Shown here: positions 38,080-47,729 of the stretch, one piece after another | Layout of the letters: each line of letters begins with the position of its first letter | How positions within the stretch are numbered: position 1 is the first letter of the stretch | NCBI GenBank assembly: GCA_019057475.1 | Contig: DXJO01000014.1 | Coordinates: forward strand, 1-64,000 | DNA: 64,000 nt | Reading direction: 5' to 3' | Source of the DNA: Candidatus Thorarchaeota archaeon | GTDB lineage: Archaea; Asgardarchaeota; Thorarchaeia; Thorarchaeales; Thorarchaeaceae | Notes under the pieces: generated by a model | Told to the model about the DNA's origin: nothing | What the model saw: only the letters and a program-made list of their open reading frames with translations | Databases searched by the model: none | Position numbers and translations under genes: made by a program

Positions 38080-38139
38080 AGGTGCTGCGCAAGTACTGCT
38101 TTTAGTCTACACACATCATGCATTAGTAGTGGAGAGCAG
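38080..38139 (-). repeat. Degenerate copy of 23S rRNA 3' end/trailer
   Basis: 45/60 ungapped identity to 47521-47580. Confidence 0.8.
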
Positions 38140-38184
38140 GGCTCTTGACTATTAATAGGAGCAGAGAGCCTAGCCTGTTGAATC

Positions 38185-39147
38185 CTACGCAACAGATGTT
38201 GGCAGTTCGACCACAACTCGCTCGAGACCCTCACTCTTCATTCTTCTCTCTAAATCCCTGACGTTCCGTCTCATAGCTAGTTCATAGAAGGAGTATACAA
38301 CCGAAATGGGACCCATTGCCAAGAGTGGTGCGATAAAGATGACTACAACTGGGAGAAGAAAGAACCAAAGAGGAACTTCAATGGTACCAGGCAATGACGT
38401 GAACCATTCATAAGTCTGAAGGGCAATGAGGAAGTAGGTTGCGATAGTCGAAATCCCTGCAAACCCCTTGAGCAGCGCAAGGTAGTAGTTTCCGACTCCC
38501 TCTATGTCCGCCGTGGATCGTGTGCCCTCTATTTTCCGTTCATAGATAATCCCAGTGTCTTCGAGAAGCCAGGCTGGAGCAAAGAAGATGACAATGAAGC
38601 TAGAAATCAGAAGTAGAAGGAAGAAGAGGGGCATAGTTTCTGCAATGCCGCGAGCCGATGGTGCAAGGGTGTCAAAACTCTCCGTCACGAATAGGAGGTC
38701 AGCAATGCTCGAATTGCTAGCGAGTGTTGATGCAAGTCCCAATGAAACGAAAGCAGGGATGATAAGCCTCCTGATGTAACTCGCGTGGCCAGCCCTTGGA
38801 TCCAACGCCTGTATGTGATAGTTGCAGTTTCTGCCTGTGATAAGACGGTGCATTTTCCATTGGAGAAGCGACAGATGTCGCGAGGTCAGGTATACAACTA
38901 TGCCTATGGCCACTGAGATGACGTAGAGCCATACGAAGTCGATTAGTATGTCTCCCGGCAGGAGTCGATAGAGCCCAAGAGGACTAGTGAACGGAAAAAT
39001 TTCAGCATAACTGAACACTACCGTGAGGGCCATACTAACAATGGCGACGATGTGCAAAGGCACCACGAATCTCCAGGGGATTGATGGGGCCAGCGCGTCA
39101 TTATCCTTCAAACCAGAGTGTAGTACGTCCGTATCGTGCTCTGACAT
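38185..39147 (-). CDS. Hypothetical polytopic membrane protein
   Basis: 320-aa ORF, several TM segments. Confidence 0.75.
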   Translation of the reverse strand: MSEHDTDVLHSGLKDNDALAPSIPWRFVVPLHIVAIVSMALTVVFSYAEIFPFTSPLGLYRLLPGDILIDFVWLYVISVAIGIVVYLTSRHLSLLQWKMHRLITGRNCNYHIQALDPRAGHASYIRRLIIPAFVSLGLASTLASNSSIADLLFVTESFDTLAPSARGIAETMPLFFLLLLISSFIVIFFAPAWLLEDTGIIYERKIEGTRSTADIEGVGNYYLALLKGFAGISTIATYFLIALQTYEWFTSLPGTIEVPLWFFLLPVVVIFIAPLLAMGPISVVYSFYELAMRRNVRDLERRMKSEGLERVVVELPTSVA

Positions 39148-39225
39148 TGACTCAACCTCTTCAGATAGACAACTGACTTTCTGAGATAGTGGTCATTATC
39201 GCACCGGCTTTTAGCAGTATTTCGT

Positions 39226-39278
39226 AGGTTCGTAACTTCTTTCTCTTGACAACTTTGGGTGTTGTGTGAATATCGCTT
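39226..39278 (-). repeat. Degenerate copy of 23S trailer (BHB 3' arm)
   Basis: cttgacaactttgggtgttgtgtgaatatcgc vs cttgacaactctaggtactgtgcgaaaaccgc. Confidence 0.72.
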
Positions 39279-39356
39279 GGGAGCTGTAGATATGGAGTAT
39301 CCTTGATTCCATTAGATTACTCCCGCCTGACCTGTATCAAGCATGCGGGAGAGCCG

Positions 39357-40625
39357 TTAATCAGCTATCCTCTTCATGGCCATCTCACGCAGATCGTCAG
39401 GAATCTCAAACTTGAATGGCAAATCCGGAAACGCCTCCAAAGAATCTATGACGAGGCACGAAAGTCTGCCAACTTCACCCAAGTCCCTGGGTCGAAGAAG
39501 AGAGGGAATATCTATGGTGCTGTGACTGACATTTCCACTGGTGGTGCCATGGCTTGCCATATGGATGGTTGGGATGCCATTTGCGGCGAAAACCTTGTTG
39601 TCCCCACCCGACGTTGCGACACGTCTACACCTAGCGGGATATGCGCCAGTCTTGGCAGTGGAGTCCAGCCAGCTAATCATCTTATCAGTGCCTGCAGCGA
39701 GCAGGAGTAAAACACCAGGGAGTGCGCCGATGCTGTCAATATTAATGCAGAGAGAGATTAAGTCTAGACTGTGAGATGCTACAAACTCCTTTGATCCCAG
39801 CATGCCCAGTTCCTCCCCACCGAATGATACGAAGTGATATGTGAACTTAGGCTGAGTCTTTGAGATTGCCCGAGCTATCTCAAGCATTATTGCCACACCT
39901 GCTGCGTTGTCGGTAGCACCAGGGGCAAAAGTGCAGGTGTCATGGTGCGCACAAATCAGAACCGTTTCTTCTCGTTGTCCGGACACACTTGCGGAAACAT
40001 TCCGAAGTAGACCCGCCTTAGATTTGCCGTGCACTATCAGTCGCAACTTAGACCCAAATATCCGGTCATGTATCTTGGCCATATCAGCTGCAGAAACAAC
40101 CATTGACGGAGCTGTAGAGAATAGTTCTCCGAGACCGGTGTAATCGTATGACCTGGGTGCCAGATTCCTATTTAGGTCCATGAACACGACTGCCGCGGGA
40201 TGCTTCGAATACAAGGACGCCCATGCTTCATAGATGTCATCACTGTGCTGGTCAATCATCAGAACACATGCAATACGTCCCTTAACGCGGGCTGCAGGAA
40301 CATCATCTATCAGTTCGTGTGAGCCAATATAGATAGTTTCTGCAGTGAGACCTTGCGCTGGAGTTTCTGCACTCATCCAACATGGTACACCATTGAGTGA
40401 AATCCCTGTTGTGGGGTCTTGTATCATGGCTAGCTTTGCATCGTAGTACTTGTGTGGAAACTCATAACAGATCACGTCGGTCAGTCCATATTCTTTGAAT
40501 TGACGCTCGATTAGTTTGACTGCAGCTTCTTCAGACTTGGAACCGGAAACCCTTGGACCTAGGTCACACAGCCGTTTCATGTTTTCATAAACTCGCGCTT
40601 CCTCGAACTCAAGCATTCCCATCAC
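39357..40625 (-). CDS. M28 aminopeptidase with PA-like insert
   Basis: AHHD, GATDNAAG, GEELG, NID, H...D. Confidence 0.9.
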   Translation of the reverse strand: MMGMLEFEEARVYENMKRLCDLGPRVSGSKSEEAAVKLIERQFKEYGLTDVICYEFPHKYYDAKLAMIQDPTTGISLNGVPCWMSAETPAQGLTAETIYIGSHELIDDVPAARVKGRIACVLMIDQHSDDIYEAWASLYSKHPAAVVFMDLNRNLAPRSYDYTGLGELFSTAPSMVVSAADMAKIHDRIFGSKLRLIVHGKSKAGLLRNVSASVSGQREETVLICAHHDTCTFAPGATDNAAGVAIMLEIARAISKTQPKFTYHFVSFGGEELGMLGSKEFVASHSLDLISLCINIDSIGALPGVLLLLAAGTDKMISWLDSTAKTGAYPARCRRVATSGGDNKVFAANGIPTIHMASHGTTSGNVSHSTIDIPSLLRPRDLGEVGRLSCLVIDSLEAFPDLPFKFEIPDDLREMAMKRIAD

Positions 40626-45914: not shown

Positions 45915-46523
45915 ATGGCTGATGACTTAGTCTACAGGGCGCTCTTTGTTGGGACATATGCGCTATTCCTTGGAGTACGCGGATACTATAGGTTTGTGAA
46001 ACTAAGAAAAGACCAGAGAAACCAGGAAGAGCCTGAAGCAGAACGAAAGAGTTTTGGAAGAGCAGAGTCAGCCATTGTCATCTTCATTCTTGGTTACCTT
46101 GTTTCCACCATTCTGTATCTCATAGGCAGCCCTTGGATTGATTGGTCCCAGATTCCCAGCTATCCTATCTGGTTACGCTTGCTTGGAATCCTTCTAGCCC
46201 TGACCATGATTCCTCTTCTTGCCTGGATTCACCGAACACTAGACAGGCAATACTCGCCCTGTCTGCAGATTAAGAGTGGTCATCAGTTGATAAGGACAGG
46301 TCCTTATGCAAGGATACGTCATCCGATGTACACAGTACTCAATTTCTTCTCGGTGGGGCTTGCTCTTCTGACTGGGAATCTGCTAGTTGTTACTTTCTCA
46401 CTGATGCTGATGTTCTCGTTCCCATGGGTGGCTAAGAAAGAGGAACAGATGATGATTGAAACATTCGGTGATGAGTATCGGGAGTACATGACAAGGACAG
46501 GTCGATTCTTCCCGAAGATTTGA
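45915..46523 (+). CDS. Isoprenylcysteine carboxyl methyltransferase (ICMT/Ste14/PEMT) family
   Basis: L..TGPY..IRHPMY, EE..M...FG.EY..Y. Confidence 0.9.
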   Translation: MADDLVYRALFVGTYALFLGVRGYYRFVKLRKDQRNQEEPEAERKSFGRAESAIVIFILGYLVSTILYLIGSPWIDWSQIPSYPIWLRLLGILLALTMIPLLAWIHRTLDRQYSPCLQIKSGHQLIRTGPYARIRHPMYTVLNFFSVGLALLTGNLLVVTFSLMLMFSFPWVAKKEEQMMIETFGDEYREYMTRTGRFFPKI

Positions 46524-46634
46524 CTCACCGCATCCGAAATCTGCACATCATCAGGATGAGGACGACCATAGTGATATCGATGAATCACAATCGATAAATC
46601 CAGATGGTTTTCGCAGTAGAACGAGGAATGGATA

Positions 46635-47366
46635 ATGGACTTCTCCAACGTTTACAAGGACGATAAGCGTGCGGATGCATATTCAAAACTCCAATTCCCT
46701 GGAACCTACTATCTGGCATTCAGAGACCTCCCTGCAATCATATCTGAACATGTTACCGGTAAGGAAGCATTGGACTTTGGGTGTGGTTCAGGGCGTTCTA
46801 CTAGATTCCTGCAGAAACTTGGCTTTCGTGTGAGTGGCGTTGACATATCGGAGGCGATGACAAGGAAAGCCAGAGATATCGATCCTAAAGGCAACTACTA
46901 CGTCATAGAGGAGGGCGACTTCAGTCAGTTCAAGGAAGGTTCATTCGATCTCATCCTGTCCGCATTCCCCTTCGACAACATCCCTACCATGGAGAAGAAG
47001 GTCATGAATCTCAGAGGTCTGAGAAATTTGCTTAGTAACGAGGGGCGACTGGTCAATCTGGTGTCGACACCTGAGATTTACACACACGAATGGACATCAT
47101 TTTCCACAAAGGACTTCCCGGAGAACAAAGACGCAAGAAGCGGTGACACCGTTCTAATAATCCAGATGGACACCGAAAACAAGGAACCTGTAGAGGACAT
47201 CCTCTGGACTCATGAGTCATATCTGGAAACCTACGATAGGGCTCAACTGGAGATTGTTAGTGCCTATCATCCGCTGGCAAAGGACGATGAGCCATACGAA
47301 TGGGTCAATGAAACTGAGATTCCACCTTGGGTTGTATATGTGTTGAAGAGAAGTGGTCATCTCTAA
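46635..47366 (+). CDS. Class I SAM methyltransferase
   Basis: LDFGCGSG, GVDIS. Confidence 0.9.
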   Translation: MDFSNVYKDDKRADAYSKLQFPGTYYLAFRDLPAIISEHVTGKEALDFGCGSGRSTRFLQKLGFRVSGVDISEAMTRKARDIDPKGNYYVIEEGDFSQFKEGSFDLILSAFPFDNIPTMEKKVMNLRGLRNLLSNEGRLVNLVSTPEIYTHEWTSFSTKDFPENKDARSGDTVLIIQMDTENKEPVEDILWTHESYLETYDRAQLEIVSAYHPLAKDDEPYEWVNETEIPPWVVYVLKRSGHL

Positions 47367-47503
47367 ATCAATTTGTAGCTGATTTCGATATCGTAATAGC
47401 TGCGGATCATCTTCTTGGCAAGTTAACGTACGCCTAGGCCATGCCTTTTCTAGCGAATATAAAAAAGATCGCTTGCAGAGGATGGAGGCATAGTTTGTAC
47501 ATT

Positions 47504-47529
47504 CTTACCTTGACAACTCTAGGTACTGT
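47504..47529 (-). other. 3' arm of the pre-23S BHB processing stem
   Basis: Pairs with 51106-51131: 14-bp helix, AGA bulge, GGGU/ACCU 4-bp helix, AAU bulge, 5-bp helix. Confidence 0.9.
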
Positions 47530-47729
47530 GCGAAAACCGCTTTTAGTCTGCACGCCTCGGACATTAGTAGCGGTGAGCTGAACACCTCGCCGAAGCTTGG
47601 TGCTTACACCCCCGCCCTATTTACCTTGTCTTCTACAAGAGTCCTCGTTCCTAAACTCAACGTTACTGTCACCAGTCCCGCTGCCCCTCGGAGGGGTCGT
47701 TTAGTAAATGGGTGACTATTTTTCGGTCT

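Follow-up and report, generated by a model that had tools for sequence, protein, structure and literature searches.

Copies of the 23S rRNA 3' tail alternate with accessory gene modules behind the 23S gene of a Thorarchaeota genome

Several described systems resemble in part the locus reported here, an array of copies of the 23S rRNA 3' tail with accessory genes between them, which lies in a 64,000-nucleotide stretch of a Candidatus Thorarchaeota genome (assembly GCA_019057475.1, contig DXJO01000014.1, positions 1 to 64,000; this whole stretch is called the window). Tandem islands at the 3' ends of tRNA and tmRNA genes (Islander, PMC4383910) and the tycheposon stacks of Prochlorococcus (10.1101/2020.12.28.424599) likewise have an intact gene followed by displaced 3' fragments in the same direction and accessory cargo, with older DNA shifted outward by new arrivals. 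Sedentary integrons and CALINs, including archaeal and Asgard ones (PMC9668308), share with the locus modules of one to three genes between same-direction repeats and the gain, loss and reshuffling of these modules. In fungal mitochondrial mORF elements of the Allomyces atp6 type (PMC3630166), an incoming 3' end similarly takes the place of the native one, which remains downstream. The SAR11 hypervariable region HVR2, between the 23S and 5S genes (10.64898/2026.04.03.716430), is alike in having variable accessory DNA right behind a single-copy 23S gene.

Altogether, our results establish the 23S-tail array as a real, lineage-wide form of 3'-end accretion. High gene turnover has been reported for Asgard archaea (PMC8813620), and the array shows where an Asgard lineage adds accessory genes, at exact junctions that can be tested.

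Tail copies and the 23S processing stem

The 23S gene that anchors the array lies on the minus strand, and BLAST of the region against the genome found no second 23S in the assembly. Folding of its leader against its trailer gives a canonical bulge-helix-bulge (BHB) motif with a 4-bp helix and a 3-nt bulge on each strand. The trailer half lies at +21 to +27 (helix 47521-47524, bulge 47518-47520) and the trailer side of the outer processing stem at +49 to +72 (47473-47496), with positions here and below counted from the Rfam 3' end of the 23S. The BHB motif is the cleavage site of archaeal pre-rRNA processing (PMC12918454). The gene, its stem and the tail copies are as follows.

51106-51219, minus: 5' leader half of the BHB (51106-51131) and of the outer stem (51196-51219), from the duplex fold with the trailer
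47545-51083, minus: 23S rRNA gene, anchor of the array (Rfam RF02540, archaeal large-subunit rRNA)
47946-48374, minus: group I intron inside the 23S gene (RF00028 at 48053-48383; alignment break at 47945/48375 against intron-free relatives)
47460-47610, minus: source of the repeat, comprising the last ~65 nt of the 23S (terminal hairpin), the 3' half of the BHB, the outer stem and a T-run, from the duplex fold and an inverted repeat
45837-45880, minus: far-trailer remnant, from ~+95 to +140 in a trailer of older type; directly after the full trailer in L073 and L110
45473-45542, minus: copy 1, ~+7 to +80; 3' half closest to trailers of genus g3; crossover site in L072 and L110
43906-43958, minus: copy 2, ~-63 to -11, terminal 23S hairpin only
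41377-41474, minus: copy 3, -59 to +38, 96% identity, a hybrid copy
~40727-40790, minus: copy 4, decayed, its core deleted here and intact in G001; one end of the M28 peptidase loss
39226-39278, minus: copy 5, +3 to +52
38079-38139, minus: copy 6, outermost, -33 to +25; an orthologous copy is present in G001

An earlier note on this DNA had proposed five intergenic copies of the 23S tail in one orientation, 1.1-2.5 kb apart, and BLAST of the tail against the genome verified all five, in direct orientation, between genes and at that spacing. Against the real end, they match at 41377-41474 (96% over 98 nt, 159 bits), 43906-43953 (81% over 48 nt, or 79% over 53; 47 bits), 38079-38137 (76% over 59 nt, 45 bits), 45513-45540 (89% over 28 nt, 38 bits; the full copy extends over 45473-45542) and 39228-39278 (76% over 51 nt, 36 bits). 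The top score among 200 shuffled queries was 26.5 bits, below all five copies (35.6-159 bits), which rules out chance repeats. Two additional decayed remnants (~40727-40790 and 45837-45880) lie beyond these five. Misassembly is unlikely, given an identical contig from JGI and synteny with the relatives G001, L072 and L073; because the JGI contig, 100% identical over 36635-57366, may derive from the same sample, the synteny is the stronger argument.

The copies comprise parts of the terminal 23S hairpin, the BHB half-site, the outer stem and the T-run. Their folding energies range from -3 to -24 kcal/mol and they have no hairpin in common. When the entire 23S and 16S regions were tiled against the genome, only the 3' tails proved to be duplicated, and no copy of the 5' leader of either gene was found anywhere in the genome. 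The copies are local in this genome rather than scattered through it, except for one at 7979-8028 of an unplaced 9.6-kb contig (C20, L037), where it adjoins genes for a 1150-aa ATPase-TIR protein, AbiTii and a RadA-like protein, surroundings that look like a defence island.

Further features of the rRNA region were noted. The group I intron, missing in L072 and several relatives, is without an open reading frame (ORF) of at least 80 aa; in G007 and G012, a LAGLIDADG ORF lies within the 23S near the position of this intron. A 60-nt insertion relative to the archaeal large-subunit model, at ~47655-47715 near the 23S 3' end, is an expansion segment. Upstream of the 23S leader, a structured stretch on the minus strand (51245-51600, z -2.6), whose 3' part is conserved in G008 and G017, has no Rfam match and is possibly an unrecognised stable RNA. 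Scans for sigma-70 promoters and terminators, which do not suit archaea, gave results at chance level.

Cargo modules, junctions and distribution

Each module consists of the 3' part of a tail copy, one to three genes and the 5' part of a tail copy; modules measure 0.5-2.5 kb and their genes lie on both strands. Assignment by Pfam bears out the accessory character proposed for this cargo, with an M28 peptidase, a nitroreductase/SagB fusion, a YdjM-like protein, ICMT/PEMT-like and class I methyltransferases and unassigned proteins.

46635-47366, plus: class I S-adenosylmethionine (SAM) methyltransferase module (Pfam)
45916-46523, plus: ICMT/PEMT-like membrane methyltransferase module (Pfam; gene call in L052)
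45553-45795, minus: 80-aa hydrophobic ORF without a Pfam match; moves together with the SagB gene in L110
44099-45381, plus: two-gene module of an unknown exported protein (open frame from 43985) and a YdjM-like membrane protein (Pfam)
41836-43770, minus: SagB/nitroreductase-membrane fusion (Pfam)
40870-41352, plus: 160-aa membrane protein module (comparison with relatives)
39357-40625, minus: M28 peptidase module (Pfam)
38185-39147, minus: 320-aa membrane protein module, common to G001, L071, L072 and L073
37313-37930, plus: LURP-one-related gene (Pfam), the first conserved gene past the array in the genus

Repeated insertion at the rRNA 3' end, as the earlier note had inferred, is supported by comparison with relatives: distal modules are common to them, proximal ones differ and most breakpoints fall in copies. 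Five related haplotypes, far from having identical gene content, differ in their modules, which have been gained, lost, duplicated and swapped among relatives. G001 has three distal modules in common with the window and a different proximal part, and homology stops within the copy at 41377-41474. The class I SAM methyltransferase module is missing in L072, where the junction, ~180 nt behind the 23S end, has a 5-bp microhomology and no copy. The ICMT/PEMT-like module is present in L072 and not in G001, G006, L073 or L110; the exported-protein/YdjM-like module is in none of these five, and its gene pair also occurs on other contigs, there without 23S copies. The 160-aa module is a tandem duplicate in L072 and stands immediately behind the real trailer in L073, the M28 peptidase module is present in G001 and lost between copies in L072 and L073, and a homolog of the 320-aa membrane protein sits downstream of the 23S end in G023. 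Named relatives of the SagB fusion are Asgard-wide, from Hod-, Promethe-, Heimdall- and Thorarchaeota. Since distant cargo homologs (L104, L105, L107, L109, L111 and L112) lie in ordinary contexts with no 23S copies, the cargo comes from a general accessory pool.

The crossovers themselves can be placed within copies at four hybrid junctions, representing three distinct module pairings. The loss of the M28 module joined the upstream side of the decayed copy at 40727-40790 to the downstream side of the copy at 39226 (L073 3148-3205; L072 near 3158). At L072 5255-5365, the copy at 45473-45542 contributes the upstream side, and the downstream side is that of a copy which in G001 stands at the head of a HEPN (HepT-like) gene. 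In L110, the 80-aa ORF and SagB stand directly behind the full trailer; the same -59 copy closes them and runs on there as fresh trailer. The window's copy at 41377-41474 is the fresh 5' part of the SagB module (as in L110) fused at +38 to the older 3' part belonging to the next module (as in L072 and G001). The crossover intervals all lie within ~+5 to +45, the most conserved stretch, which spans the BHB half-site. An exception to such boundaries is the right end of the YdjM module, ~100 nt past the copy at 43906.

The array thus grows both at its rRNA side and internally, by insertion within it and recombination between copies (L110, L072), and identity therefore does not decay monotonically with distance. 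The earlier note had ascribed this pattern to donors of different relatedness, which is one part of the picture: the copy at 45473-45542 does fit trailers of genus g3 (scores 67 and 57) better than its own trailer (43), which lends such donors modest support and is suggestive of exchange between genera. Contigs L053 and L110 have tail sequence at both ends, which repeat-bounded assembly explains as well as a circular form does. Tail copies cause assemblies to break next to rRNA genes and can be mistaken for additional rRNA fragments.

A search of 58 family genomes with the tail of this genome gave a match in 44 (the one-contig genome G042, having no 23S match, was not usable), and 20 of these 44, spanning at least eight genera, have extra copies. 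The relatives that share the tail motif are named Candidatus Thorarchaeota, and copies carry their own genome's trailer type. Queried with its own tail, G017 has 33 copies, spread over six contigs and pointing the same way within each contig, whereas G006 has none and there are none behind the 23S in G009, G015, G019, G021 and G025. Three genomes from other families have no copies in about 16 kb. G020 has one copy about 240 kb from its 23S, on the same contig and strand. In L092 (G043, assigned to another genus), the 23S tail is 99% identical to that of this genus, which may reflect misbinning or rRNA transfer.

Copy ends vary widely, even at identities of at least 88%. Among 65 copies, two of them cut by contig ends, the 5' end lies anywhere between -192 and +67 and the 3' end between -11 and +160; no more than 54 share any one position, some copies do not overlap and no base is common to all. 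Further genomes have copy 5' ends at -72, -76, -106 and -193. Near-identical copies (98% identity) start at points as different as -106, -55 and -42, which does not fit a single att crossover unless trimming is very fast.

Some observations on array genes stand apart. A HepT-like (HEPN) RNase gene recurs behind the 23S in several genera (L001:2811-3326, L072, L091, L115 and L011). At L013:10351, L014:4718 and several G017 copies, surface-protein genes stop exactly at the copy's left edge or borrow a stop codon there. A motif resembling a promoter ahead of some G017 copies was identified as the C-terminal anchor of genes for surface proteins, leader copies being absent.

Possible routes of gene capture

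We favor, with a probability of about one half, a model in which the 23S tail is a site of gene capture and exchange through host recombination in short tail homologies, by insertion-duplication and module exchange and with no linked site-specific enzyme. We envision incoming DNA as a tail piece illegitimately joined to unrelated genes, which could be a circle from another array or a transforming fragment. A single crossover in 50-250 bp of shared tail would integrate it, restoring a working end and shifting the old end outward. Long duplications would be purged or trimmed, with selection favoring trailers able to pair with the leader, and 5' copies would be selected against, since a displaced terminator would do no harm but a displaced rRNA promoter would drive transcription into the cargo. 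Once present, copies could serve as secondary targets, so that an array would grow at its rRNA side and internally.

This model draws support from the hybrid junctions, the distal modules shared with G001, the variable copy ends, the trailer type that copies have in common with their own genome, the duplication of 3' tails alone and the negatives of the enzyme search given below. It is also supported by unrelated anchors, the 16S trailer, the end of an acyl-CoA dehydrogenase gene and a tRNA end, that carry arrays of the same build in this genome. Copies of the 16S trailer (C9:15531-29725, C41:19057-25698 and C42:290698) all start at least 13 nt past the 16S 3' end. Downstream of the acyl-CoA dehydrogenase gene (C26:100850-133411; L077, L078), its last ~65 nt and terminator recur at least 12 times in the same direction over 31 kb, and the cargo between these copies includes a 3068-aa ORF; more copies lie on C22, C28 and C51, and ten other family genomes have extra copies. 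Several 3'-half copies lie downstream of a tRNA-Ala-like gene missed by ARAGORN (C21:65134-83316; also C9:1779 and 2723). Other dispersed repeat families occur on C49, C51, C22 and C21:106315-109296, one of them associated with tyrosine-recombinase regions.

A number of points weigh against this model. For RadA-type exchange, 30-100 bp at 75-95% identity is a short homology, and no circle, excision or integration event was observed. Every mapped crossover includes the BHB half-site, a pattern that a specific nuclease would also give. Whereas most breakpoints do coincide with repeats, as the earlier note had expected, two fall outside: the edge of the methyltransferase module in L072, and G006, where 46579 is joined to 37965 and no copy lies at the junction. 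The lack of recombinase matches counts for little, since metagenome-assembled genomes (MAGs) often lose mobile elements. Among 2683 ORFs, just the acyl-CoA dehydrogenase gene has a 3' end that anchors such an array, and the nearly fixed left edge of its copies across genera, at -60 to -69, suggests site-specific targeting at least there. This site may have a specific driver that is missing at the rRNA sites, or all sites may share one.

The copies could alternatively be classical att scars, left by elements that hit the 23S end in tandem with their own or a visiting tyrosine or serine integrase, lost the integrase and eroded, the islets recombining later. The geometry of a restored gene and a displaced fragment is that of tDNA islands (PMC4383910), tycheposon stacks with scattered partial tRNAs look alike (10.1101/2020.12.28.424599), this genome has eight tyrosine recombinases and tRNA-end arrays, and many copy 5' ends fall at -53 to -68, besides the fixed edge of the acyl-CoA dehydrogenase array. 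The scattered starts of near-identical copies and the non-overlapping copies run counter to this idea, as does the small size of the modules, just 0.5-2.5 kb. The search for enzymes was a loose first pass over incomplete MAGs, so its negatives mean not found rather than absent. It returned no tyrosine recombinase (PF00589) on the array contig C46, in agreement with the earlier note, or in G017, G024, G007 and G001; the eight of this genome all lie off the array contig and have no match in 508 kb of array loci, and none of the att-like flanks at this genome's integrases match the 23S tail. PF00589 was matched in 23 of 58 family genomes, and 14 of the 20 array-bearing ones gave no match. We therefore consider att scars unlikely, and the suggestion that a recombinase acts in trans at a fixed site is not supported, given the variable ends, the lack of a universal base and the array-bearing genomes, most of them without a tyrosine recombinase match. 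The 35 of 58 Thorarchaeota genomes with no tyrosine recombinase match at all possibly lack XerA.

More broadly, PF00589, PF00239, PF07508, PF00078, PF02371, PF01797, PF14528, PF00961, PF01844 and PF01541 had no match in the arrays searched. In five array-bearing genomes, reverse transcriptase (PF00078), IS110 and large serine recombinases were not found, and a Y1 transposase was found in one. A single IS110 lies 1.4 kb behind the G008 23S and is not general. Large proteins that recur in arrays proved to be beta-propeller, LRR, NosD and transglutaminase-like proteins.

Three further routes would need other machinery. A free-standing endonuclease could cut near the gene end, with repair bringing in a replacement tail and cargo, displacing the old tail, and with later loss of the nuclease gene. 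Such homing-type capture has a precedent in fungal mitochondrial mORF elements at atp6 and other genes (PMC3630166), variable resection could yield variable ends, and in G014 the acyl-CoA dehydrogenase gene and the first of its tail copies flank a 606-aa LAGLIDADG ORF (L113:1852-3672). That protein has no match in array loci, however, no LAGLIDADG, HNH or GIY-YIG match was found in any 23S array searched (matches next to the 23S lie inside the gene) and the core tail sequence is conserved rather than recoded, and we regard this route as quite improbable. Nor do we expect much of fragile-site repair, in which replication-transcription conflict or R-loops would break a highly transcribed gene end and template switching or microhomology joining would insert DNA with variable target duplication. 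It would account for the strict 3' polarity at both rRNA genes, the variable ends, the tandem module duplication in L072 and the microhomology at the methyltransferase junction, but it gives no reason for an array at a single metabolic gene and none at other highly expressed genes, and alone it does not explain orthologous modules recurring behind the 23S in different genera. Least probable by far is RNA-templated insertion, with pre-rRNA read-through or BHB-cleaved RNA reverse-transcribed or priming insertion: many copies stop at the end of the trailer, 12 of 65 exactly at +80, with 5' ends variable like those of truncated cDNAs, and the core is the BHB site. Yet +80 is also the limit where leader pairing stops constraining the trailer, copies span the BHB cut site and are local rather than dispersed, cargo lies on both strands with intergenic DNA retained, and five array-bearing genomes yielded no reverse transcriptase.

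Beyond host recombination as such, we raise tentatively, and with considerable doubt, the idea of a host-encoded, integrase-free capture system acting on the 3' tails of 23S, 16S, tRNA and acyl-CoA dehydrogenase genes, possibly directed by an unknown factor that acts where transcripts end or on the BHB motif, and building super-integron-sized arrays without attC or IntI.

Comparison with known systems

A literature search, with subscription journals mostly outside its coverage, found no published description of such 23S-tail arrays. The SAR11 HVR2 differs from them in being a single large region with tRNA and rRNA genes at its borders, and the part of that source available describes no internal rRNA-tail copies (10.64898/2026.04.03.716430). 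Elements of the rDNA retroelement type (R2-like or group II intron) would bring a reverse transcriptase, and PF00078 was not found in the five genomes searched. In mORF elements, a free-standing endonuclease lies between new and displaced ends, an arrangement seen at the G014 acyl-CoA dehydrogenase site; in the 23S arrays no endonuclease was found, and there are many cargo modules rather than one nuclease ORF.

Homology-facilitated illegitimate recombination, or insertion-duplication, in transformable bacteria reportedly combines one homologous anchor with one illegitimate junction and gives variable ends with no dedicated recombinase, as is said of the work of de Vries and Wackernagel (2002) and Prudhomme et al. 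(2002), both cited in PMC2884548. The array shares the variable illegitimate junction and the crossover in homology. The events in those studies are said to be single laboratory events, usually deleting recipient DNA, and not standing arrays that duplicate an rRNA tail.

The integron comparison made in the earlier note holds for behavior, since modules are gained and lost at repeats, and fails for membership. There is no IntI next to an attI (optional for a CALIN), genes point both ways instead of being co-oriented with the array, the crossover is unfixed, and the repeats are copies of the host rRNA tail with no common hairpin, as judged without running an attC covariance model. Arrays of this kind escape tools that require an integrase or attC. 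With tandem islands and tycheposons, the array shares the intact target and its displaced fragments in direct orientation; it differs in having no integrase per unit or in its modules, no common 5' edge (5' ends from -193 to +67, to which later erosion might contribute), modules of only 0.5-2.5 kb and up to 33 copies per genome, and its target is an rRNA tail with a BHB stem. Because the integrase, fixed-crossover and attC tests failed, we file the 23S-tail array under neither integrons nor tRNA-end islands; it takes 3'-end accretion beyond tRNA genes to the processing stems of rRNA, at which every insertion has to preserve the pairing of the BHB stem with the leader.

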